DNA from: Caldisericales bacterium
GTDB lineage: Bacteria; Caldisericota; Caldisericia; Caldisericales; Caldisericaceae
Reading direction: 5' to 3'
Length of the DNA: 64,000 bases
NCBI GenBank assembly: GCA_015489815.1
Contig: WFZA01000049.1
Location: forward strand, 59,554-123,553
Shown here: piece after piece, positions 4,995-64,000 of the stretch
Layout: each line of letters opens with the position of its first letter
Numbering within the stretch: position 1 is the first letter of the stretch
The notes under the pieces: generated by a model
What the model was told of the DNA's origin: nothing
What the model saw: the letters and a program-made list of their open reading frames with translations, nothing else
The model's database searches: none
Made by a program: the position numbers and the translations under genes

Positions 4995-5068
4995 TGGTGG
5001 GCGATAGTGGAATCGAACCACTGACCTCTTCGGTGTCAACGAAGCGTTCTACCTCTGAACTAACCGCC
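4995..5068 (-). tRNA. tRNA-Val (anticodon GAC)
   Basis: The reverse complement GGGCGGTTAGTTCAGAGGTAGAACGCTTCGTTGACACCGAAGAGGTCAGTGGTTCGATTCCACTATCGCCCACCA folds as a cloverleaf with anticodon loop TTGACAC and an encoded CCA. The + strand ORF 4778..5131 is an artefact over it. Confidence 0.9.
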
Positions 5069-5080
5069 CACTCTCTTATT

Positions 5081-5185: not shown

Positions 5186-6859
5186 TTAGTGTTCACCTAT
5201 ATCTGCACGAATCTTTGCTGCAAGTTCTTTAAGCCCATTTTCAGGAGTCGTCTTTCCAAGATACACTTTTTGTAGTTCAGCAGAAATATCCCTCCTTGCA
5301 GTATTCCATGCAGCAGTTGGAGGCTCAGTCAAACAATTTGCAAGTTGATCGTAACCCGCCCTGAGGTCAGGATGCTCATTAAGGAAGTTCTGAAGGATAG
5401 GAAGCTTAAGAGCAGACTTTCTTACAGGAAGGTAACCAGATCCAACAGCCCAACGAGCAGTCTGTCTCGGTGAATCAAACCACTTAACAAACTTCCATGC
5501 ACCCATTTGCTGTTCAGCAGTAGAGTTCGTTCCAAAGATTACGACATTTGTACCATACATTACGGAATGCTGACCTGCAGGACCTGCTGGAAGTTCTGCT
5601 TCAGCAAATTTAAACTTTCCACCCACTGCTTTATTAATGTAGTAGTAACTTGCAACGCTTGCAAAGATGAATGCACATCTCTGGTTTCCAAAGTCAGTCT
5701 GATACGCATACCTTGTCGTAATATGCATTGCTCCACTCTTCACGAGGTCGTTAAACTTTTGCATTGCAATGAGCCCTGCTGGTTCGCTAGTGTTGGGAGT
5801 TTTATCGAAGAGGACCTTTCTGTAGTCATTAGAGAGCACCTGTCCTCCATATTCGTAAACTCTTGCATACCATACATCTACAGATGGAGTATAAGACACA
5901 CCCCACTGACTACCGTCAGACTTGGTAAGTGCTTTACAATCTTTTTCAAACTCGTCCCATGTCTTTGGAACAGAAAGTCCGTTCTTTTTAAGCATATCGA
6001 TGTTATAGTACATCACAATGTCACTCTTGTTGAACGGGAGCATCCAGAGTTTCCCGTCAGGAAGATAACCGTCTTTCCACATGTTTTCAAAGAAGTCTTC
6101 TCTATCTTTTTTAAGAAGGCCTTCTGGACCATAAACAAACTTCTGCATAGGAATTAAGTAACCACCAGTAATGTACTGCGCTACCCAGTTTTCGTATGCC
6201 TGAGTAAGCACAGGTGGATTACCAGCTGCAATTGCTGCAATAGTTTTCTGCTGAAGCGGCCTGTAACTTGAGAAAGAGGTACTGTCAATTTCAATTCTTG
6301 GATGGGTAGCATTAAACTCTTTTACGAGAGCCTTTAGCGTATCGCCCTGCTTGTAGTTCATTGCATTCCAGAAGGATACTTTCACCGGTTTCCAGTCAGG
6401 AGAATACTTAATCGTTACGGAACGCTCAGTACCATTCCAGGTAACTTCCATTCCAAGAGTTTCAGCAACAAATCTTACAGGAACAACCGTTCTTGAAGTC
6501 TTTACAATAATTGTAGGTGGCGCATCAAGATAAACATCATACCCATTTGCCTGTGCTTTTACATCATCGATCTTCAAAATAGCGATATTCTTTCCAAGAG
6601 TAATAGTAACAGTCCTATCCTTAGGATTCCACTGAACATTTGCCCCCATTGCCTCAGATACAAATCTAATAGGCACCATAGTTCTGTTGTTCATTATTAC
6701 TGGCGGTTGATCAAGAGGCTTTTCTACTCCATTCACATACGCCACCGGTTTACCAATGTAGATCTTAACAGTAGTTACATTTTCAGCAGCAGTTTTAGAG
6801 AAAGGTACAATAACTGTTACAGCAAGTAAAAGAGCAAGAATCAATGCAAGATACTTTTT
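5186..6859 (-). CDS. Carbohydrate ABC transporter substrate-binding protein with two N-terminal copper-amine-oxidase N-terminal-like (stalk) domains
   Basis: Signal peptide, then two ~60-aa repeats (...VNGVEKPLDQPPVIMNNRTMVPIRFVSEAMGANVQWNPKDRTVTI... and ...YLDAPPTIIVKTSRTVVPVRFVAETLGMEVTWNGTERSVTI), then a family-1 solute-binding domain. There is no lipobox. The likely start is the ATG at 6859 (M5 of the track ORF), which has a GAGGAGG RBS. Confidence 0.8.
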   Translation of the reverse strand, partial: KKYLALILALLLAVTVIVPFSKTAAENVTTVKIYIGKPVAYVNGVEKPLDQPPVIMNNRTMVPIRFVSEAMGANVQWNPKDRTVTITLGKNIAILKIDDVKAQANGYDVYLDAPPTIIVKTSRTVVPVRFVAETLGMEVTWNGTERSVTIKYSPDWKPVKVSFWNAMNYKQGDTLKALVKEFNATHPRIEIDSTSFSSYRPLQQKTIAAIAAGNPPVLTQAYENWVAQYITGGYLIPMQKFVYGPEGLLKKDREDFFENMWKDGYLPDGKLWMLPFNKSDIVMYYNIDMLKKNGLSVPKTWDEFEKDCKALTKSDGSQWGVSYTPSVDVWYARVYEYGGQVLSNDYRKVLFDKTPNTSEPAGLIAMQKFNDLVKSGAMHITTRYAYQTDFGNQRCAFIFASVASYYYINKAVGGKFKFAEAELPAGPAGQHSVMYGTNVVIFGTNSTAEQQMGAWKFVKWFDSPRQTARWAVGSGYLPVRKSALKLPILQNFLNEHPDLRAGYDQLANCLTEPPTAAWNTARRDISAELQKVYLGKTTPENGLKELAAKIRADIGEH

Positions 6860-9884: not shown

Positions 9885-10456
9885 AAGTTCTTCAGCTCAC
9901 TCGTTCTTAACTTTTGCAAAGTACCCCAGGAAAACAACCAGACGACAAATCCCACAACGAAAGACATTACACTCTGCAATAGACTTTTAACATTTACACT
10001 CAAGTAAGAATCAGGTATATTTGGTTTTGGCGCTCCGGGGATTTTCTGGTTAGGAGTGATAGGAACATCTACATAATTTACCGAAAAAAAAGAACCAATA
10101 ATCGTTATAAATGAAAAAACGAAAATCATTAAACCTATAAAAGAAACGATGTAAAAAAACAAATTTCCCCAGAAGTTAACATCGTTTTGAGTTTTACTAA
10201 GAGTACCTGGACCGAATCTCCCTTCTTTTTTTATAATGTTCCAATGGGATAAAAACAGTAAAAGACCAGCAAGAATTGCCGCAATATCACGAGCTACTTC
10301 TGAAACAAAGTAAAGATCTTTGCCGCTTCCACGAAAAACAAAACTAATACTATGTTGCGAGGCTGCAATAAAAGAAAAAATAAGCATAATCACACCAACG
10401 AGACTTACGAGATAAAGATATATACTCCTCAAAACCTCTGTTTTGCTGTACATACT
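9881..10456 (-). CDS. Hypothetical integral membrane protein
   Basis: Multi-TM ORF. The track start (10534) overlaps tRNA-Arg. A more plausible start is MYSKTEV at ~10456, which has an AAGGAGGG RBS. Confidence 0.5.
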   Translation of the reverse strand, partial: SMYSKTEVLRSIYLYLVSLVGVIMLIFSFIAASQHSISFVFRGSGKDLYFVSEVARDIAAILAGLLLFLSHWNIIKKEGRFGPGTLSKTQNDVNFWGNLFFYIVSFIGLMIFVFSFITIIGSFFSVNYVDVPITPNQKIPGAPKPNIPDSYLSVNVKSLLQSVMSFVVGFVVWLFSWGTLQKLRTSELKNL

Positions 10457-10472: not shown

Positions 10473-10549
10473 TGGCGCGCCCAGCAGGAGTCGAACCTGT
10501 AACCTACGGTTCCGTAGACCGTCGCTCTATCCAATTGAGCTATGGGCGC
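10473..10549 (-). tRNA. tRNA-Arg (anticodon ACG)
   Basis: The reverse complement GCGCCCATAGCTCAATTGGATAGAGCGACGGTCTACGGAACCGTAGGTTACAGGTTCGACTCCTGCTGGGCGCGCCA has a 7-bp acceptor stem, a CTACGGA anticodon loop and an encoded CCA. Confidence 0.85.
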
Positions 10550-22040: not shown

Positions 22041-25000
22041 TTATGGATAAGTAATAGTTATACTACGCGTTGCATTATCCCATACGATTTTTGCACCAAA
22101 TGCCTCTGCTATAAACCTTAAAGGCACCATAGTGTGATTCTTTATAATGAGAGGCGGTGCATCAAGCATTACTTTTTTGTCGTTAATTGAAGCAAAACTT
22201 TTTCCTATTTGAAGGATAATCGTCCTGTTATTTAGAGTAATAAATACGAGTTTAAATACAGGATACCACTGAATCTTTGCACCAAATGCTTCCGATATAA
22301 ATCTTATTGGAACGAGCGTTCTGTTTTTTACTATCAGCGGCGGCGCATCAAGCAATTTCTTTTCGCCATTTACTATCACATACTTGTTTCCAATTTGAAG
22401 TATTATAGTAGTTTTAAGAATAAGTTTTACGGGAATTGATACTTTAGTTTTATTCCCTGCAAGGTCTGTTGCAACGACACTAATCGTGTTAAGGCCTTCT
22501 TTTGAAAGCGTTAAGGTGCAGGAGAACGAATAATCCTCCGGATTTACAGGTACTGAAATACCGTTAACTGTTACCTTTGCATTCTTTTCAGTCTTTCCCT
22601 TTACAGTTACAAATTGAGAGTGGATTACCTGGAATGCAACAGGAGCAAACACGGTAAGTTTTGGTGGCGTAGTATCTACACTTACGGTAAGGTTTACAGT
22701 TGTGACATTACCCGCCTGATCCGTTGCCTTAATAACAAATGCCGTTTTCTCTGAGATATTTTGGGAGTAAGTAAACGAACCGTCAGGAAGGACATCTACC
22801 GACTTTCCGTTCACCGTTACCGTCGCACTTTTTTCAGTTTTCCCCTTTATTACGCAATTATGTGTGTTTAATACTTCGTTATTTTTAGGTGAAAGAATAG
22901 TAAGTTTAGGAGGAATAGTATCTACTTTAAACTTCTTACTAACTACATCACTTTTGTTGTTTTCGTTATCAACTGCATAGCAGTAAAGCGTGTGCACTCC
23001 ATCAGGCACAGAGATCGGAGAAGTATAAATAGTAGGACTTCCGTTATCAAAGTAATAGTAAATTACCGGATGAGGGTCAATCGGGCTACTCGCAGTAAGT
23101 ATTACGATCGGATGCGTCTTGTAGTAGCCATTTAGTCCGTCTGGATTTTCAGGGTTAACGCTCATAGACACGGTAGGCAAAGCAACAATAGTAACCTTTT
23201 CTGCCTTTATCCAGGTAGGCTCTGCCGTGGTAGAGATTTCAAAGTAATAGTCACCTGTAGTCTTCGGATTTTTAATACCTGCACTTTTGTCAATTACCGC
23301 AGTTACGGTTGAATTAGGATAAATGTACACAGGTGTTCTTACTTCTACGACACTTCCTGAACGAACTCTTACATAACTAACAGGCATATTATTTATCTTT
23401 ACGGAAGTTATCGGAATATTGTGTGGCAGATAAAAACCGACTGGGAATTTTATTAAAATTTTGTCCACTCCTGCTTGAAGTGCGCCTGAGGCACCCGTTA
23501 CGAAAGAAACTGTAATAGAAATATTTTTACCAACGCCATTACTGCTTAGTTTTACTGTGGGATTCAATATATGAGATTTTACGATATGCACCTCGTAACT
23601 TACGGATACAGAATCTGCAGAGGTATACACTGAAAAGCTATAAGTTCCAGCATTATCTGGATTTCTGATGCCAGCCTCTTTTTTAAACACCACGGTAACA
23701 TTTGAATTATTGCCTACATAAACAGGAGTAATTATCGTAACTTTTCTATTTGAGATCGTAACATTGTACGCTTTACTACCGTTTACCAGAACATACGAAG
23801 AGTTAAAGTAAGAAGGTAGTTTAAATCCCTGTGGAAATTCCACAAAGATTTTACCGGAAGAAGCAGACAGTGCACCACCTGAGGAAGTAACAAACGCAAT
23901 GGTGCATTCAGAATTTGCATTTTGAGTATTAGGTTTCAATGTAACATTCAAATTTGATATTGAAGTTCCAACGATATTGTACTTGTTAGAAGTCGCTGGA
24001 ATTACATCTCTATTCGTAGAGAGCGTTAAAGTATACAATCCCGGAGGCGGATTTTTAATCCCGTAATTAGAAGAGATAAGGACATTGCAGGATGAGTTAT
24101 TGCCCACCGAAAGATTATTTGGCAGGTATATGGTTAAAGTTTCCCCGTTAACATACCTGCTCGCCACGCTTACGCCGTTTATCGTAATGTAATTTGGGCT
24201 TCCGTTAGGAATTTGCGTTCCCTGAGGGAAAGTAATTTTAATGTAGTCACCACCCGTGAGTGCCCCGTTAGGACCCGTAACAAACCAGATAGAATAAGTT
24301 GCTGCAGCATACGCCGTGTTGGGAGAAACAGAAACTGTAAGATTCTTTATGTTACTTTGCACGATCGTATACGAATTAGAAGTTGCAAATGCAGGCTCCT
24401 TGTTCGTAGCAAGTTGAATTGTATATGTGCCAGCAGGTGGGTTCTGCACTCCAAAGTCTGTAGTTATGTCAATAGAAGCCGTATAGTTCGCAGGACAATT
24501 CACAGGCGTCTTTATGTCGAGTTCAAGATTGCCCACTCTCGTAACACTTGAACAGTGATATCCATTTACCAGTACATAAGAAGCATTAATCGTAGAAGGA
24601 AGGACAGTACCCGAAGGAAATTTCACATATATGTGGTCATTGGTGTAAAGTGAAACATTGGGAACAAAAGAGATTGCATAGTCAGCAATACTTCCACTTG
24701 AAAGCGGGCTTACGATTACGGTCAAACTCCTTACCGTCTGTTGTATGTACAACGGATATGTCTGCGCTGCTTCCTTTGAAGTAGAAACCGAAATATCGTA
24801 ACTTCTCCCTCCAACAGGCGGATTCTTGATACCAGCAGAACTGTAGATTTGAATGTTTACACTTCCGTTTGCTGCAAGATCCTGTCCAGGATAGATTCTT
24901 ACCGTCTTCCCGCTTACAGTAACATTATAGGGCAAGACTCCGTTCACCCTTACAGCATTTTTATTAATCGTCGTAGGGACATAAAACTCATTTGCAAACT

Positions 25001-30558: not shown

Positions 30559-32820
30559 CTATCCGCCGTAAATAATCGTCACGGTACGCGTCGTTCCATC
30601 CCACTCGACCTGCGCACCAAATGCTTCCATAATAAAGCGAATTGGCACATAGGTCCTGTTATGAATAATAATCGGCACAACTTTAGGATTGTTTGGATCT
30701 ATCTGTTTGGGGACGCCGTTTACATACGCCGTGTTCTTTCCAATGTATAGTTCAACTTTATCGTTGTTTAGCGTAATCGTTACTTTGCGCTGAACGGGAT
30801 CCCATTCTACATCCGCACCAACTGCTTCAGTTACAAACCTTATCGGAACAAGTGTTCTGTTATTTTCAATAATAGGAGGAACATCTGTTGGGACGAACTT
30901 TCCATTTACCGTCATTCCCTTCTGGTCAATAACCATTTTTACTACCACTTTACTGCTCTTTTTCTGGTCGTAAATGTATAATCCACCTGATTCCGTACCA
31001 ACGAAAATTGCTCCACTCTTTTTGTATACAAAGTCCGGGCTAAACACCGTTCTGAAAACATATCTATTATCTTTGTCCCCGTTAATGTTCGTCCACATAT
31101 TTCCCTCGTCGAAACTCAGGTAAACCCCATCCCAGGAACCTGCAAGAATAATGTGGTCATTTGCAAAGTTTGGGGAAAGTTTTACGCCGTCGTCCCACAT
31201 GTGGTACTTTAACAACGCATCAGATATATTGGTGAAACTATCTCCACCGTCTTTTGAGAGATATAATCCTGCACCCATCGTCCCTACGATCAGCGTCTGA
31301 TCGTTTTCAAAGTTTCTTGAAAGTGAAATATCTGCAATCGTATAGTGAGGGATTTTATTAAACCCAATGGATGTCCACATTTTGCCCTGATTTAAGGTTT
31401 CGTATACAGTGCCACCATTCGTGCCTATAAAGATTGCGTTACCCACGCCGTCAACTGCCGTAATGTCAGTATCGTACGGTAACATACCCTTGTTTCTCTG
31501 AACAAATGTACTTCCACCGTCGGTTGAAACGAACATTCCCTTATCTCCACTGCCTACATATATTACACCCTTTTCGTCCTCAAATAGTACGGAGATGTAA
31601 TTCGTGTCGATGTTTACTTTACTAAAAGTACTTCCACCATCGGTTGTTTCGTATAAACCGTCACCTTCAGTTCCTACGAAGTATGTCTTCGAATTTCCGC
31701 AAACACTCGTTACGATGTCGCCTTCGGGAAGCGCGGAAACATTTGTGAATGTCTTGCCTTTATCTGTAGACTCGTAAAGTCCATTCCACTTAGTACTTAC
31801 AAATACTGTGCCGTCGTTTGCGTAATCCGTAGAAAAGTTGATTGCCGTAATGTCAGTGCAGGTAATTCCGTAACTTGACTTCGTAAAGTTACCGTTTTCT
31901 ACTTTATACACACCTCTTCCCTGCGTACCGACAAAAATTGTGCCATTATCGACACAGATCGCAGAAAGAATAAGGTTGCCGTCCTTTGCAACGCTTTTCC
32001 AATTTTCCCCATCGTATTCCATTACACCGTTTGAAACAGTTGCCGCATACACTTTACCGTTATCCAGCACGAAGTCATTTATTTTGTAACCTTTAAGCAT
32101 GTGATCTAAATTATCTGCACTGCCCATAAACATACCATCGTAAAAAGTAGAAATATAAAAAGTGCCGTCCTGGTAAATAATTTTTGATACCGGACTTTCC
32201 GTTACACTGTCTACGATTTTTTCGGAATCTTTTCCGTCAAGGCTTACTTTATAAACAGTTCCATCCTCACAACCTACATAAACATAATCGGAAGTTGCGT
32301 AAATTGCAGTTGCCGTAGGTTTAGTAAACCTTGCAATTGTTTTCCAGAGCTGTTCCTGCTTATTCCATTTCATCAGCAGGCCGTCAAACGACAGTGCAAA
32401 AATGTCACCTTCAGAATCTTCCGCAAGGCCTATAATGTAACTTGATTCAAGGCCCATGTTAAAGAACTGGAAGTGCTGCCCTTTGTCCCTGCTTAAAAAT
32501 ACACCATCTTTCGTCCCGAGAAATAAACCATCCTTACAGTAATTTTTAGATATAAGAACTGCATTCGCACCTTCAGAAAAAGTAAATGGGAGCTTTTCCC
32601 ACTTCTTTCCAGAGTCAGTGCTTTCAAAAATCGCTGCATCAGTAGAGGCAATAAGCGCTCCACCAGACATTTTTTGAATTGAAGTTATAAAGCCACCGTT
32701 TATTGATGCAGGATTTCTCCAGTGGACTTCGTCGTCAGCCTTAGCAATGTGACCAAAAAAGAATAAAGGCATAACAACCAGTGCAAGAACAACAAATAGT
32801 ACTAAAAACTTCTTTTTCAC
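30559..32820 (-). CDS. Secreted BNR/Asp-box beta-propeller repeat protein with two C-terminal CAO-N-like anchoring domains
   Basis: Multiple S-x-D-x-G-x-T-(W/F) repeats (STDSGKKW, SRDKGQHF, STDKGKTF, TTDGGSTF, STDGGSTF, SKDGGDSF). C-terminus ...NNRTLVPIRFVTEAVGADVEWDPVQRKVTI...HNRTYVPIRFIMEAFGAQVEWDGTTRTVTI. Confidence 0.7.
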   Translation of the reverse strand: MKKKFLVLFVVLALVVMPLFFFGHIAKADDEVHWRNPASINGGFITSIQKMSGGALIASTDAAIFESTDSGKKWEKLPFTFSEGANAVLISKNYCKDGLFLGTKDGVFLSRDKGQHFQFFNMGLESSYIIGLAEDSEGDIFALSFDGLLMKWNKQEQLWKTIARFTKPTATAIYATSDYVYVGCEDGTVYKVSLDGKDSEKIVDSVTESPVSKIIYQDGTFYISTFYDGMFMGSADNLDHMLKGYKINDFVLDNGKVYAATVSNGVMEYDGENWKSVAKDGNLILSAICVDNGTIFVGTQGRGVYKVENGNFTKSSYGITCTDITAINFSTDYANDGTVFVSTKWNGLYESTDKGKTFTNVSALPEGDIVTSVCGNSKTYFVGTEGDGLYETTDGGSTFSKVNIDTNYISVLFEDEKGVIYVGSGDKGMFVSTDGGSTFVQRNKGMLPYDTDITAVDGVGNAIFIGTNGGTVYETLNQGKMWTSIGFNKIPHYTIADISLSRNFENDQTLIVGTMGAGLYLSKDGGDSFTNISDALLKYHMWDDGVKLSPNFANDHIILAGSWDGVYLSFDEGNMWTNINGDKDNRYVFRTVFSPDFVYKKSGAIFVGTESGGLYIYDQKKSSKVVVKMVIDQKGMTVNGKFVPTDVPPIIENNRTLVPIRFVTEAVGADVEWDPVQRKVTITLNNDKVELYIGKNTAYVNGVPKQIDPNNPKVVPIIIHNRTYVPIRFIMEAFGAQVEWDGTTRTVTIIYGG

Positions 32821-38851: not shown

Positions 38852-39169
38852 AATTAGGCCTCCTTCCCGACCTTTAAGTTTCCACTTTTTCCTTTATATT
38901 TATACCAATATTTAAATAAAAATCAACTACACTCGTAGAAGATCCCCGAACGAATACCTGTATTAGTTCTTCCTGAAAGAGCTTTTCTGCATACAGAACC
39001 TGCACGACTTAAATCCTATGGAATAGCCTTTTCTCAAATCTTCAAGTCTGAAATTAAATCCTTTTTAGAAAGATTAAACAAAATTGTTGAACGGCACAGT
39101 AAAAGAGCTGTCACAAAAAATTTTAATAAAAATCAATCTTGAAAGCGCCAATAATCGAAATTGAAACTC

Positions 39170-39345
39170 ATTATCACAAAATTTTGAACCTTTAAAACCC
39201 TGTATTTATCAAGGCTAATTCAAAACATGCCATTTAAATGCCCATAGACGCAAATCTTGAGAAAAATCGGGTAAATATACCTGCAAAACGCTTAAAACGC
39301 CTTATTTTAGAAGGCAATAAAGCCTGTATTTATCAGTGTTTCTTT
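39170..39345 (+). repeat. Copy A of a ~170-bp intergenic repeat element
   Basis: About 90% identical to the reverse complement of 63270..63455. It is bounded by internal direct repeats CCTGTATTTATCA (39199 and 39323) and carries a CATTTAAATG palindrome. Confidence 0.6.
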
Positions 39346-39931
39346 GATCCAGACCAAAATTAAATATGATTTTTCAGGTTATAATTCTTAGAAACCCTTT
39401 ATTCATCTGCATTTCTTAATGTCACAATTTTTCACTTTTCCGAACAAAAATTCGATATTTTTACCTTAAATTAGCCTCAATAAAGTTTAATAATAACTGC
39501 ACTAAAGTACAGCGTTTTAGTAAGTGCTTTTAGGAGGTAAAGCGGGAATCCTAATACTCATAACCACTTATTGCCGTAGCATGGCTGCTATATCTATTGC
39601 CCACATCGCAAGTTACAATTACATTCAAGTCCCAAATCACCCCTAAAAACTTTTCCTTATTTTTACTTATAGAAGTCCATGGTTTCCAGCAGAGAAAAAT
39701 GTTAAAAAGACATTTGCACAAGTACCGTAAATTGTTGTGCTTATAATTATTAAAGGAAAGCAACTCGAAAAACAGACTTTGCACTATTTCAGGAATTGAA
39801 CGAAGCATTTTTTGGAGAAGGCCATTCAATATAAATTCCTCCACGGCACAAAATAGCCTCCAGACATTTTAGAGCAAGTTTGCTGCTAATTAAGATAAGT
39901 GATAAGCAGAATACATCCGAAAATCACTGAG

Positions 39932-40026
39932 AGTTATAACTATACTGATAAAGATTTTCCTCCCATAACATAGCAACCGAAGTTATTAATACTACGAGTA
40001 TGTAGAACAAAGTTATAGTTATAACT
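39932..40026. repeat. 13-bp perfect inverted repeat (AGTTATAACTATA / TATAGTTATAACT) with a 69-nt loop, flanked by direct repeats CAGAATACATCC(R)AAA
   Basis: The inverted-repeat arms are at 39932-39944 and 40014-40026. The direct repeats are at 39907-39922 and 40095-40110. Confidence 0.4.
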
Positions 40027-40332
40027 ACAAATGTGACCGATTAACCTTTTAAAAATCTCTCTTTCTAAATTTTATTTATAAAGGTGTGGAATTTCAGAAT
40101 ACATCCAAAAGTTTTCAGGAAGTTGTAGTTCATTTAACAAGTGTCTTTCTACAGTACAACGATTGGAGTACTTGCTCGTATGTATTAACAAGGGGCGCAA
40201 AGTTGCAATATAACGGTGCGAGGAATAACTAAAGCTCAAAATTTTATCCTTTACGATCTTTAGATTCAAAAAGTATAAGACTTCTGGAATATAGCAGCCT
40301 TAAAGCAATTTTATTCAGGCTCAAAAAGTAAA

Positions 40333-40603
40333 GCGCTGTGCGTCTGCAGTTGACTGCTCCTTACCAGCGGTACGGCAGCAGGAAACTCCAGTGAGGCAAC
40401 CCTACGGCACATGGTACACCTTCTTACCGCTGCTTCCTTCCGGACCTCACGGGGTTCAAAGGCTTCCATTGCATAGGACCCCACCTTCAACATTTCCTAA
40501 CTGCCGCCAGCCTGACAAGGAGACAGCCGCCTGCAGATTGTCAGCCCCGGTATAGCAGGTTCCGGGTTACAGGGCACTGCTATCTCCCCGCTTTAGCACA
40601 GCA
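40333..40603 (-). ncRNA. ffs: Signal recognition particle RNA, long Bacillus-type form with Alu domain (ffs/scRNA)
   Basis: The minus-strand sequence UGCUAAAGCGGGGAGAUAGCAGUGCCCUGUAACC... matches the Alu-domain 5' region. ...GUGAGGUCCGGAAGGAAGCAGCGGUAAG...CAUGUGCCGUAGGGUUGCCUCAC matches the domain IV helix 8 motif. This GC-rich ~270-nt island sits in AT-rich DNA. A TATAAT at 40609-40614 (minus) lies just upstream. Confidence 0.85.
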
Positions 40604-54590: not shown

Positions 54591-55181
54591 TTACTTTGCA
54601 GAAGGTGCGTTATAGATAGATTGGGCCTTTTCCACACCCAGAAAGATTACATCTTCAACTGCATCTGCAGCTCTCACCAGAGATTCGTTCACGATGTCAA
54701 CTTCACTCTTTTTAAATGGCGAAAGGACATAGTCAATTACATCTTCCTTGCTCTCAGGACGACCAATGCCTATACGCACTCGTATAAAAGACGGGCCGAT
54801 TAAAGATATTATAGAGCGCAATCCTTTATGCCCTCCGTCGCCTCCGCCCTTTTTAATACGAACAGTGCCAACGGACAAATCAAGGTCGTCGTGAATAACT
54901 ATAATGTGGTCAGTTGGAACTTCAAAAGCATACTGAAGAGGTTTGACAGCCCTTCCTGACAAATTCATGTATGTAAGTGGTTTTGCAAGGACTACGGTTT
55001 CTACTTTGCCGTCTCTCTTTACTACACCCTTATTATAAAACGATTGATACTTAATTTTCTTAGGAATGATTTTCCACCTATTTGCAAGTATGTCCACCAC
55101 CATAAAACCTGCGTTATGGCGTGTGTTTGCATACTCGTCACCTACATTACCCAATCCCACTATAAGAAACATTTTTATCAC
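54591..55181 (-). CDS. pth: Peptidyl-tRNA hydrolase
   Basis: FLIVGLGNVGDEYANTRHNAGF... is a canonical Pth N-terminus. Confidence 0.9.
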   Translation of the reverse strand: MIKMFLIVGLGNVGDEYANTRHNAGFMVVDILANRWKIIPKKIKYQSFYNKGVVKRDGKVETVVLAKPLTYMNLSGRAVKPLQYAFEVPTDHIIVIHDDLDLSVGTVRIKKGGGDGGHKGLRSIISLIGPSFIRVRIGIGRPESKEDVIDYVLSPFKKSEVDIVNESLVRAADAVEDVIFLGVEKAQSIYNAPSAK

Positions 55182-55266
55182 CGCGTATATTCTACAAATT
55201 TAATGCTTTATTGCAAGAAAGTAAAATAAGTATAAAATGAATAAAGCAAAAATTTGGAGGTGAGTT

Positions 55267-56205
55267 ATGGGATCTTTAATTCTTTGGACACTATTGTTAA
55301 TTGTCGTACTGGTCATCGCATCTAAAAGTGTTATTATCGTAAAACAGGCAACGGCTGCAATAGTAGAGCGTTTGGGACAATATTCGCGTAAGCTTGGGCC
55401 CGGACTTCATGTATTGGTTCCTTTTATAGAATCAGTAAGAAAAGTAGTAGACTTAAGAGAACAGGTGTGGGATTACCCATCACAAGAAATTATTACAAAG
55501 GATAATGTGGTGGTGAAAATAGACAATGTTATGTATTACATGATAACCGATCCCGTAAAGGCAACATACGAGGTTCAAAATGTAGACCAGGCAATATTAA
55601 AACTCTCACAAACGGCAATTCGTAACATCTGTGGAAATTTAACACTTGACGAACTTCTCACCTCCCGTGAACGAGTGAACGAAGTATTAAGGCAGGATCT
55701 CGACAAAGCAACAGACCCATGGGGAGTAAAAGTAACACGCGTAGAACTAAAGGCCATTAACCCTCCACCAGAAATTCAGGAAGCAATGACAAAGCAGATG
55801 AAGGCAGAGAGAGATAAGCGCGCAATGGTGCTTGAAGCAGAAGGAGTAAAGCAATCTGCTATACTTAAAGCAGAGGGAGAGAAACAATCGGCAATTTTAA
55901 AAGCAGAGGGCAAAAAGCAATCCCAGATTCTTGAAGCAGAAGGAGAAGCACAGGCAATCGTAACCGTTGCAAAAGCAAAGGCCGACGCAGCCGAAGCATA
56001 CTTCACCGGGATACACAAAGGAAACCCAACAAAAGATGTAATTGCAATACAATATATGGACACATTAAACAAAATTGCAAACGGTAAAGCAACAAAAGTT
56101 TTCCTGCCGTATGAATCATCCGCACTGCTTGGTTCTCTCGGAGCAATAAAAGAAATATTTAACAACGGAGGAGCCACTCAAAAGACAGATGAGAAGAAGA
56201 AATAA
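55267..56205 (+). CDS. SPFH/band-7 (stomatin/HflC-like) membrane protein
   Basis: N-terminal TM, an SPFH core and a C-terminal heptad Ala/Glu-rich region (KAEGEKQSAILKAEG...). Confidence 0.85.
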   Translation: MGSLILWTLLLIVVLVIASKSVIIVKQATAAIVERLGQYSRKLGPGLHVLVPFIESVRKVVDLREQVWDYPSQEIITKDNVVVKIDNVMYYMITDPVKATYEVQNVDQAILKLSQTAIRNICGNLTLDELLTSRERVNEVLRQDLDKATDPWGVKVTRVELKAINPPPEIQEAMTKQMKAERDKRAMVLEAEGVKQSAILKAEGEKQSAILKAEGKKQSQILEAEGEAQAIVTVAKAKADAAEAYFTGIHKGNPTKDVIAIQYMDTLNKIANGKATKVFLPYESSALLGSLGAIKEIFNNGGATQKTDEKKK

Positions 56206-61692: not shown

Positions 61693-62448
61693 ATGCAAAT
61701 TGCTCTTTTACTAATAGGTGACGAAATACTTAACGGTGAAAGAGAAGATCTGAATGCACATTACCTTATTAAGAAGTTCGGAGAGAAAAACCAAAAACTC
61801 TCCGAACTTCTCGTCGTTCCGGACGAAATAGAAAAAATCAAATCTGGGATTTTATACTTAACAAAAGGAAACGACTTTATTATTACTTCTGGAGGATTGG
61901 GGCTTACACCAGACGACAAGACGCTTGAAGCAATTGCCTCCGCTCTAAACCTCGACATTACAAAAGATGCAGAAGTTAAAACACTTATAACAAACAGTCT
62001 TGAAAGATTAAAAGTTAAAGTTAAGCCATTCATTATAGAAGAATTTAGTAGAAGAATAGATAACGCTGATGTGTTTCCAAATGAAGTAGGCGTCGCTCCC
62101 TGCCAGCATATTACATTTCAAAGTCGTTCTATTTTCGTATTACCAGGAGTGCCCAGCGAATTCCGTTACTTTATAAATAGTGTAGTTATGAAATACATAG
62201 AGAAAGTAGACAAAGAGAGAACTGAAACATTCCTCGTAAACGGAAGGGAATCAGACTTTGCAGACATATTGCAAAAAATAGAAAAGGAATTCTCCGTTAA
62301 AACCGCCTCTTATCCTCCAGTAGAAATTGGCGAAAATTATGTAAAAGTAAAAATTACAGGGAGAGAAGATCTCGAGCCTGCTGTTAAACTGTTTACTTCT
62401 TTGTTAAAGAAAAGAGGTATAGAAATTGAAAAGAGAGTTTCCACATAA
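61693..62448 (+). CDS. CinA N-terminal / MoaB-MogA-like molybdopterin-binding-fold protein
   Basis: IALLLIGDEILNGEREDLNAHYL...FIITSGGLGLTPDDKT. Confidence 0.7.
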   Translation: MQIALLLIGDEILNGEREDLNAHYLIKKFGEKNQKLSELLVVPDEIEKIKSGILYLTKGNDFIITSGGLGLTPDDKTLEAIASALNLDITKDAEVKTLITNSLERLKVKVKPFIIEEFSRRIDNADVFPNEVGVAPCQHITFQSRSIFVLPGVPSEFRYFINSVVMKYIEKVDKERTETFLVNGRESDFADILQKIEKEFSVKTASYPPVEIGENYVKVKITGREDLEPAVKLFTSLLKKRGIEIEKRVST

Positions 62449-62890
62449 TCCAATTGTAGCGGTAGGAGGTGTAATTCTTAAAAACGAAAAAGTTCTGCTC
62501 GTAAAAAGGCAAAACCCGCCAGATAAAAGTATGTGGAGCATTCCTGGTGGTGCAGTAGAACTCGGCGAAGCGCTTTCTGAGGCAGTTCAAAGAGAGATAA
62601 ATGAAGAGTGTGGAATAAAAGTAGATAACGGACAGATAATTGCAGTAATAGATAAAATTTACTCTGCAAAATCAGGCGTCCTGTATCACTACGAAATTGT
62701 AGACTTTGAATTTAAAGATTTTATCGGAACTCCGCATCCAGGAAGTGATGCGTTGGATATAAGATTTTTTACATTCAACGAAGCTTTAAATTGTAAAACT
62801 GTTGCAACAAGCGTAAAAGAACTAATCGAAAAAATTTACATACACTCCATAGCAAAAAAATCACCGTTGTATCTTACATATAAAATATAA
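62426..62890 (+). CDS. NUDIX hydrolase
   Basis: Nudix box GGAVELGEALSEAVQREINEECGI. Confidence 0.8.
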   Translation: MKREFPHNPIVAVGGVILKNEKVLLVKRQNPPDKSMWSIPGGAVELGEALSEAVQREINEECGIKVDNGQIIAVIDKIYSAKSGVLYHYEIVDFEFKDFIGTPHPGSDALDIRFFTFNEALNCKTVATSVKELIEKIYIHSIAKKSPLYLTYKI

Positions 62891-63269
62891 AAAATAATTT
62901 ATTGCTCACGCCTCAATCTTTTGCACAGCAAAAAACGAGAGGAAATTTTTAGGTAAACAGTTTACTCTATGCACAGCCATTTACACAATTCAAAAATTAT
63001 TTATCAAATATCCAAATATATGGCACTTTGAAGCATAGTAGAAGAAAAGTAAAAACACAAATTCTAACATGTCAATCACATAAAGAAGTAAAAAGTAGAA
63101 TAAAGGCAGTAAATATGAAGTTTACACTCGAAATTGGCCTTTTCTTACGCATACGAACAATTTTTTCGCTTTTTGGTTGAATTTTGTCTATTTTTGACAC
63201 TTAAGAAACCCTTTATTTATGCAGGTTTCTATTTTCGATAATTTACTCAAATTGATAATTTCGAAGTGA

Positions 63270-63455
63270 TTTTTAAGAAATACTGATAAATACAGGCTAT
63301 ATTGCAATTTTCGTATGCCCTAAAATAAGGCATTTTAAGCGGTTTTGGAGGTATATTTACCCGATTTTCCTCAAGATTTGCCTCTACGGGCATTTAAATG
63401 GCATATTTTGAATTAGCCTTGATAAATACAGGGTTTGTTAAGGTTAATTTTCTGC
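63270..63455 (-). repeat. Copy B (inverted) of the ~170-bp intergenic repeat element
   Basis: Its reverse complement aligns to 39170..39345 at ~90% identity. It includes both CCTGTATTTATCA direct repeats and the CATTTAAATG palindrome. Confidence 0.6.
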
Positions 63456-63603
63456 AATAAGGTATTCTTTAGGGAAGGTGTTTTTTATTATTTTTGCCAG
63501 AATAAAATCTCCTCTTCTTCTAATAATCTTTAGTTACTTTTGCGAAGAATCTTATTCTTTCCTCTCATCCTCGAGTGAGCGTCAGCGAGCGAAGGATCTT
63601 ACA

Positions 63604-63640
63604 TTAGAAAGGACACAAAGTTTCCTTTCTAACTTTTCTT
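63604..63640 (+). terminator. Perfect 10-bp hairpin TTAGAAAGGA-9-TCCTTTCTAA followed by CTTTTCTT
   Basis: Seen directly. No upstream gene can be assigned, so its function is unclear. Confidence 0.3.
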
Positions 63641-63867
63641 CCTGTGGAGGAATAAAGTGAATTAGGTAGTTGATTTTGTTAAAAAGTAATTTTGCAAGGA
63701 AAAAAGGTAAAATCGTTAGCTGCATTTTCCCAAATGTAGGATTATTAAGGCAGAGATTCTTCGCTGTGCTCAGAGTAACAAATCTAAAATATTTTTTGTT
63801 AAGGCATAGATATTTCACCGACGATTCTTAGTTAAAAGATAAATACTACATTTGTAAAATTCCCTTG

Positions 63868-63900
63868 TTAAAAATAAATCCCCCGCTTTCTCAGCGGGGG
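63868..63900 (-). terminator. Intrinsic terminator for a minus-strand transcript entering from beyond the window end
   Basis: CCCCCGCT-ttctc-AGCGGGGG is followed on the minus strand by ATTTATTTTTAA. Confidence 0.45.
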
Positions 63901-64000
63901 ACCGAGGAGTGAATAAGGAAAGCGGTCACAGATCTGCTTTTTTAGGTAATTTGTACAGCACATCGTCATAAGGTGTACGGTACAATTTTGACTTTAATAG

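Follow-up and report, generated by a model that had tools for sequence, protein, structure and literature searches.

The small repeats of bacteria that come closest to the elements reported here are MITEs, such as Correia/NEMIS of Neisseria and RUP of Streptococcus pneumoniae, and the modular repeats represented by the BIMEs (REP clusters) of enterobacteria and BOX of S. pneumoniae. REP units are GC-rich and have stems of 10-12 bp. A third relevant phenomenon is the small hairpin-loop inversion, in which a spacer flips between short inverted repeats; these are known mainly from chloroplast non-coding DNA. Our literature search found no interspersed repeat family described for the phylum Caldisericota. 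In this work we describe two sequences from a genome of this phylum. With somewhat better than even confidence, we take them to be members of a lineage-specific non-coding interspersed repeat family, nearest to MITEs and to mosaic REP/BIME or BOX repeats.

The two sequences lie in a 64-kb stretch of DNA, which we call the window. Exact matches to its proteins are in MAGs from hydrothermal metagenomes, and homologs are labelled Caldisericaceae or Caldisericota. The original prediction described an inverted pair of ~170-bp repeats, 24 kb apart and ~90% identical. A repeat search of the window recovers the pair as inverted arms of 119 nt at 39171-39289 and 63342-63460 (87% identity), with a second pair of arms of 31 nt at 39314-39344 and 63275-63305 (94%). 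BLASTN likewise aligns 39187-39344 on the plus strand with 63445-63275 on the minus strand (87.1% over 171 columns, E=2.5e-47), confirming the pair but placing its identity at 87%. A pairwise alignment of the two copies contains a single 11-nt indel.

The setting of the copies is also as predicted, each lying in a large ORF-free, AT-rich region of ~32-33% GC, against 39.1% for the window. The spacer of locus A (38852-40335, GC 32.7%) runs from the start of glyA to the 3′ end of a large SRP RNA gene (40336-40601, minus strand, 188 bits). That of locus B (62891-63926, GC 32.3%) separates the 3′ ends of a NUDIX gene and an ATP-citrate lyase gene. Two features of these spacers deserve separate mention. 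About 330 nt of locus A (window ~39890-40217) is missing in two related assemblies, L026 and L035, which have ~60 nt there; within this segment, 39920-40006 has 78% identity to sequence on contig L012, upstream of the element there, and may be another repeat or insertion. At locus B, the NUDIX stop codon is separated from the element's 3′ end by 258 nt (62891-63148) that are ORF-free and 76-80% conserved in three species; this conservation matches that of the element and exceeds that of the spacer on its other side (54-66%), and the segment is absent from other elements of the same subtype. The NUDIX gene itself (window 62426-62890) is called as only 54 aa in the ortholog at L029 10734-10898 (GCA_054011935.1), where an in-frame TAA stands in place of a sense codon in the window; this is probably a pseudogene or an assembly error.

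The most conspicuous component of the two copies is the 13-mer CCTGTATTTATCA, found exactly at 39199 and 39323 on the plus strand and at 63284 and 63420 on the minus strand, i.e. twice per copy. At 0-1 mismatch it matches nowhere in the window outside the two copies, and at up to two mismatches there are 9 window matches against 1.7 expected. The original prediction had these direct repeats bounding the element. We set the boundaries by aligning non-orthologous copies, which places the ends further out, at 39181-39461 (locus A, plus strand) and 63149-63452 (locus B, minus strand). The element thus starts ~20-25 nt upstream of the first 13-mer and extends 115-125 nt beyond the second. Family elements are 280-305 bp long with 30% GC, the window copies being 281 bp (A) and 304 bp (B). 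They belong to two subtypes, T1 and T2. An nhmmer profile built from six T1 copies matches the element at locus A (E=1.8e-88), and one built from six T2 copies matches that at locus B (E=1.6e-91); the two profiles find no third copy in the window. The repeated unit is really ~21 bp long, AAACAAACCCTGTATTTATCA, and each element holds three copies of it together with one degenerate inverted copy.

The 5′ (L) module is common to both subtypes and has a mean column identity of 84% in a 12-copy alignment. In the T1 copy it occupies 39181..39346 on the plus strand, the portion that had drawn attention originally. Its parts are arranged in the order leader, first unit (M1), variable P1 cassette, conserved core, second unit (M2) and GTRTTTCTT. 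M1 is the 13-mer at 39199..39211, with the extended 21-bp unit starting at 39191. The P1 cassette that follows is ~34 nt long, and different cassettes occupy the same position in other copies. Variant a, found in the T1 copy at 39212..39245, holds CATTTAAATG at 39231-39240; this palindrome is present in the window copies, as had been predicted, but belongs to only one cassette variant and is not a family-wide feature. The conserved core reads TAGA..ATCTTGAGAAAAATCGGGTAAATATACCTGCAAAACGC..TTAAAACGCCTTATTTTAG. A central box, GGGTAAATATACC (39269..39281), is the unit in inverted and degenerate form (8/12 matches) and is invariant in 11 of 12 copies. It is followed by a short hairpin, GCCTT-ATTTTAG-AAGGC (39299..39315), where GCCTTATTTTAG is invariant across all copies, and by M2 (39323..39335), a direct repeat of M1 lying 124 nt downstream. 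The L module of the T2 copy (63273..63452, minus strand) has M1 at 63420-63432, the central box at 63350-63362 and M2 at 63284-63296, with an 11-nt T2-specific insert upstream of M2 (about 63307-63319). Its M1-M2 spacing is 136 nt.

The two subtypes are defined by the 3′ (R) module, which exists in two forms (39347..39461, plus strand, in the T1 copy; 63149..63272, minus strand, in the T2 copy). Both carry a third unit, M3, that lies ~73-82 nt beyond M2 and is more degenerate than M1 and M2. In the T1 copy a stem AGAAA..TTTCT (39390..39416, plus strand) encloses a spacer holding M3 (CCTTTATTCATC) in direct orientation, which gives a direct-repeat trio at 39195, 39319 and 39392. In the T2 copy the stem AGAAACC..GGTTTCT (63204..63230, plus strand) encloses M3 inverted relative to M1 and M2. 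This difference in M3 orientation, direct in T1 and inverted in T2, holds across the family, and only these two combinations of units were seen. The T1 members are winA (the window copy at locus A), L011, L012, L013, L014, L020, L026/L035 and L037; the T2 members are winB, L015, L016/L029, L017, L018, L019 and L031. The 3′ limit of family similarity falls, in the T1 copy, at a 4-bp hairpin CGAA-CAAAAA-TTCG followed by a T-rich run (39441..39454, plus strand), on which the terminator scan made no call.

The subtypes explain an oddity of the window pair. A second shared motif had been noticed in direct rather than inverted orientation, and AGAAACCCTTTATTYAT does occur exactly on the plus strand at both 39390 and 63204, the opposite of the relative orientation of the rest of the element; the cause is the M3 spacer, flipped between T1 and T2. 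Local alignments suggested wholesale inversion of the R module between subtypes. This was rejected by global alignment with shuffles, in which the two forms are colinear (z=3.8 forward, equalled by 1/500 shuffles; the reverse complement gives z=1.0). The sole flipped part is the ~14-nt M3-bearing spacer inside the AGAAAC/GTTTCT arms.

The flip has structural consequences. With M3 inverted to M1, T2 gains a long-range hairpin: in the T2 window copy the two units form a 19/21 inverted-repeat pair resembling terminal inverted repeats, and the folding z-scores are -2.9 and -3.5 on the two strands. T1 has no terminal inverted repeats because all three of its units are direct, and it folds no better than shuffled sequence (z of -0.8 on the element strand and 0.0 on the opposite strand). 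The inverted units of T2 are not true ends, since similarity among copies runs ~25 nt past M1 and ~60 nt past M3.

A spacer between inverted repeats that is found in both orientations within one family also brings to mind a phase-variable DNA switch, with the M3 spacer or the whole 3′ module being flipped by a site-specific recombinase. We consider this very improbable. Every assembly and species has one and the same orientation at each of the loci A, B and L013, and no recombinase gene is adjacent. The subtype of each locus is equally stable, B being T2 in 6/6 assemblies of the window species and A being T1 in 6/6 complete assemblies. Copies that are old, fixed and invariant in subtype argue against an active switch, and the strong divergence between T1 and T2 3′ modules means that the flip is old. 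One old flip of the internal stem-loop spacer has produced the two subtypes, and the window pair is simply a T1 and a T2 member whose 24-kb distance and opposed orientation are coincidental.

The extent of the family was surveyed with two patterns. A species-level scan (one genome per species) for CCTGTATTTATCA-N100-130-CCTGTATTTATCA returned six sites, each on a contig of its own in a single Caldisericaceae MAG, JALVXB01. Four further contigs came from JGI metagenomes, scanned with the internal pattern GGGTAAATATACCT..GCCTTATTTTAG, which is independent of the 13-mer. Overall there are at least 10 distinct loci, at least seven of them in one related species (the six JALVXB01 contigs plus locus A in a sister assembly). 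The concern that only the two window copies might exist is thereby removed, and these dispersed loci, with the orthologous copies described below, support the MITE-like or REP-like intergenic repeat family that was among the candidates first proposed. Four Logan contigs (L009, L010, L030 and L036) terminate inside an element, which fits because repeats break short-read assemblies.

The family was seen in a narrow Caldisericaceae clade only. Genomes whose GlyA is 92%, 91% and 82% identical have no element in ~21 kb around glyA, and none was found at the outgroup loci L033 and L038, two more distant relatives without synteny at the element loci. A phage or plasmid origin was rejected: among viral contigs there were 0 matches for the architecture pattern, 0 for the core pattern and 5 for a degenerate 19-mer (chance level), and BLASTN against plasmids and phages was empty.

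These results also bear on the 24 kb between the window copies. Two inverted copies at this distance could mark the boundaries of an inverted-repeat-flanked island or composite transposon, or could be a chance local duplication, but we give such readings practically no weight. The family has many other loci, the two copies are of different subtypes, and the intervening housekeeping genes stand in the same order in the distant relative L033, which is without elements. The original prediction had doubted an island on account of these housekeeping genes, and rightly so; the copies are two independent family members, each fixed at its own locus in several species. In this interval lies a point (window ~55180-55270) at which gene orientation changes together with AT and GC skew, with pth and mfd on the minus strand on one side and Band_7..DnaB..NUDIX on the plus strand on the other, an arrangement kept in L033. 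The window holds no DnaA-box cluster, so this is probably a boundary between divergent gene clusters and not an origin. A replication origin was also rejected for the elements themselves: there are 19 near-matches to the DnaA box TTATCCACA against 15.8 expected, none of them in either spacer. Nor is element orientation tied to replication, element strand and local GC skew having no consistent relation. Elsewhere in the window a 77-nt segment occurs four times at 62-73% identity (6639-6715, 22090-22166, 22276-22352 and 30812-30888), each time inside a large minus-strand ORF. A protein domain common to these ORFs is the probable cause; the gene at 30559-32820 carries Cu_amine_oxidN1.

Orthologous copies show how the elements have evolved. 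A T2 copy occupies locus B in three lineages: the window species, a JALVXB01-like species (L016, L029) and the lineage of L031, where the CinA-like protein has 84% identity. At locus A the window shares its T1 copy with L026/L035 (GlyA 98%), and three assemblies have a T1 copy at the L013 locus. The copies are thus old and fixed at their loci. Ortholog identity is 78-91% for the elements and 76-81% for the adjacent non-repeat spacer, whereas the SRP RNA reaches 98.9% and the glyA 5′ region 97%. Between-species divergence of the elements is thus about equal to that of neighbouring spacer DNA, i.e. near-neutral. At locus A the L-module core, at 93%, is somewhat better conserved than the flanking sequence, at 81% (Fisher p=0.003); the corresponding difference at locus B (83-85% vs 76-80%) is not significant. 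The locus A signal could reflect weak constraint and not only homogenisation, although gene conversion could mimic it.

Paralogous copies are 74-86% identical, about the same as orthologs (78-89% in this comparison), and the copies are mosaic. P1 cassette variants are independent of subtype and differ between orthologs, the T2 copy of the window carrying variant a and its ortholog L016 variant b1; L013 has cassette a, and L020/L037 have b plus a different leader. Segments have therefore been exchanged between copies, which points to gene conversion.

No shared or per-copy direct repeat was found at the alignment boundaries, which are ragged and make this a weak test for target-site duplication. 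All examined loci are occupied in every assembly and species of the clade, with neither an insertion polymorphism nor a clean pair of filled and empty sites among them; routes to empty sites through glyA, CinA-like and sigma-54 activator orthologs led to occupied sites or to rearranged outgroup loci. No transposase adjoins the examined copies and no autonomous parent element was found. Past transposition is something we infer. Its spread, to about ten intergenic sites or more, would date to the ancestor of a small Caldisericaceae clade, and the element was presumably mobilised by an enzyme that acted in trans and recognised the repeated 21-bp unit. Since then the copies would have stayed fixed, drifting at a roughly neutral rate and partly homogenised by gene conversion, probably with no present cellular function. 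They look like old, passively evolving relics of a mobile element, not like a gene or a switch.

Are the elements nevertheless genes? No ORF is conserved across 12 copies. A protein-coding or type I toxin gene was considered and rejected: a shared 41-48-aa ORF (MP[IV][DE]ANLE..) occurs only with cassette variant a, its ATG being lost in variant b and its frame shifted by an 11-nt indel. A known RNA family was rejected on the Rfam result, which gave nothing at gathering score, nothing at E<=10 for copy A and only chance-level matches for copy B. A structured RNA was rejected too, the evidence from alignment folding, z-scores and the P1-closing hairpin all being weak or absent. RNAalifold gives -8.25 kcal/mol for 12 L modules and pairs the central box with M2, yet covariation across copies, proposed earlier as a check, is absent, 0/20 predicted pairs showing compensatory changes. 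The P1-closing hairpin exists in some variants, where it is weak at -2 to -8 kcal/mol; 4-7 of 15 copies lack it.

A small RNA gene family was another of the candidates originally proposed. On a fuller version of this reading, each copy would be its own transcription unit or carry an outward promoter, and the unit would act as a seed or protein-binding loop. Several features are as this reading would have them. Nearly every copy has a CAAAAT hexamer 12-15 nt upstream of M1, the intervening bases varying, and -10-like hexamers stand at fixed columns in both subtypes. On the reverse strand, 7/7 T1 copies and 5/7 T2 copies have TAAAAT; on the forward strand, all 7 of 7 T2 copies have TTATCA-N16-17-nAAAAT. 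However, such kept hexamers are indistinguishable from plain conservation in a family this AT-rich and highly similar. Inside the two window copies, consensus scans detected neither a sigma-70-type promoter nor an intrinsic terminator, and no -35 element is conserved across copies, whereas the promoters next door are canonical (TTGATT-N16-17-TATAAA for glyA, kept across species, and TTTAAA-N16-TATAAT for the SRP RNA). The only terminator-like feature is the 4-bp hairpin at the 3′ end. Several of the RNAalifold pairs are G-U on the element's forward strand only, most elements have no co-oriented gene downstream, as expected for stand-alone units, and the conserved L core at locus A fits an RNA as well. 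Against this, T1 folds no better than shuffled sequence with 0 compensatory pairs, and divergence is like that of spacer DNA, far from the 98.9% of the SRP RNA. Base composition also differs, the elements having 30% GC against 53-60% for the structured RNAs of this genome, namely an FMN riboswitch (980-1126), tRNA-Val (4995-5069), tRNA-Arg (10473-10549) and the large (Bacillus-type) SRP RNA. On balance the candidate is unsupported and we think it unlikely.

The third original candidate was a set of regulator-binding modules. In its fullest form the elements would be binding-site arrays for a lineage-specific DNA-binding protein (nucleoid-associated, regulator or recombinase), with the 21-bp units as putative operators. 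Every copy has 3-4 units at conserved spacing in AT-rich, intergenic sequence, and in copies retrieved by searches independent of the units, M1 and M2 together carry just 9 mismatches over 182 positions. But the unit is absent outside the elements in the 64-kb window at 0-1 mismatch, so it is not a general operator. The genes flanking the elements share neither function nor orientation, being unrelated housekeeping genes that are mostly convergent. In addition, the non-unit blocks ATCTTGAGAAAAATCGGG and GCCTTATTTTAG are equally conserved, the third unit tolerates either orientation, and overall divergence is near neutral. This candidate, too, found no support, and we rate it just as unlikely as the small RNA genes.

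A reading that draws on both has the elements as genes for clade-specific, ~280-300-nt, unusually AT-rich regulatory RNAs or RNA/DNA decoys, whose 21-nt unit, present three times, would titrate one RNA- or DNA-binding protein and whose two subtypes would stem from the loop flip. We regard this as distinctly unlikely. Were the copies indeed transcribed or protein-bound they would constitute a new regulatory family, but nothing found points there.

The neighbourhoods of the elements hint at changes in gene order. In the genomes with GlyA 92%, 91% and 82% identical, glyA lies 49-64 bp behind an ABC-transporter operon. JALVXB01 has a four-gene operon of the same architecture followed by a T1 copy (L011), and in the window clade a T1 copy precedes glyA in matching orientation. 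This suggests a rearrangement in which each junction carries a copy of the element, a reading that we keep tentative because identity between the operon proteins is just 52-61%. In the outgroups glyA stands directly behind a DZR_2 / Peripla_BP_2 / FecCD / ABC_tran operon, an adjacency lost in the window clade. The glyA promoter and 5′ region (window 38852-38925 and L021/L022/L024 ~9950-10000; TTGATTTTTAT..TATAAAT..GGAGG) are kept across species, and upstream homology with the outgroups stops ~70 nt before the ATG.

The same spacers host a second, GC-richer family of short repeats (about CACTCTGAGCGnAGCGAAGAGTCTCTGCC, and CCTTCGCAAAgaCGGCTCAGGACGA), lying 20-300 nt upstream of the 5′ ends of many elements. 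Sites are found in the window (63559-63600, 63742-63782) and at L011 (5245-5320, 5540-5575), L013 (5443-5474), L015 (1274-1312, 4563-4781) and L016 (6884-6915). In L011, L015 and L017 this repeat abuts the left edge of the element, and the spacers resemble repeat dumps.

The family described here is useful in several respects. It explains two large spacers that otherwise appear empty and why assemblies of MAGs in this Caldisericaceae lineage break time and again, and its members flag sites of possible gene-order reshuffling. The phylum, for which our literature search found none described, thereby gains a documented family of interspersed repeats. Furthermore, the mosaic cassettes and flipped loop provide a small example of gene conversion and of short-inverted-repeat-mediated inversion in bacterial repeats.

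How, then, do these elements compare with known systems? Like the MITEs, they are small (<600 bp), AT-rich, non-coding, multi-copy and intergenic, their copies are 75-90% alike and serve as recombination substrates, and T2 folds into a long hairpin through inverted units that resemble terminal repeats. They differ from MITEs in several ways: target-site duplications were not seen, nor was a parent IS found, the ends of T1 are not inverted, and similarity passes beyond the inverted units. Copy number is also low at ~7-10, with no insertion polymorphism in the clade; this number is low for REP families as well.

In their architecture the elements resemble BIMEs and BOX: they are modular, combining a short repeated unit with linker modules, the units may be direct or inverted, subtypes are distinguished by the form of a module, copies are mosaic, and the preferred site is between convergent genes. 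They part from REPs in that the unit palindrome is just 3-5 bp (CCTG-TATTTAT-CAGG) and lost in several copies, as opposed to stems of 10-12 bp, in being AT-rich where REPs are GC-rich, and in having tens of times fewer copies. Finally, the reversal of a ~14-nt spacer between AGAAAC/GTTTCT arms with colinear flanks resembles small hairpin-loop inversions, with the difference that here the flip defines two old repeat subfamilies and not alleles at one locus.
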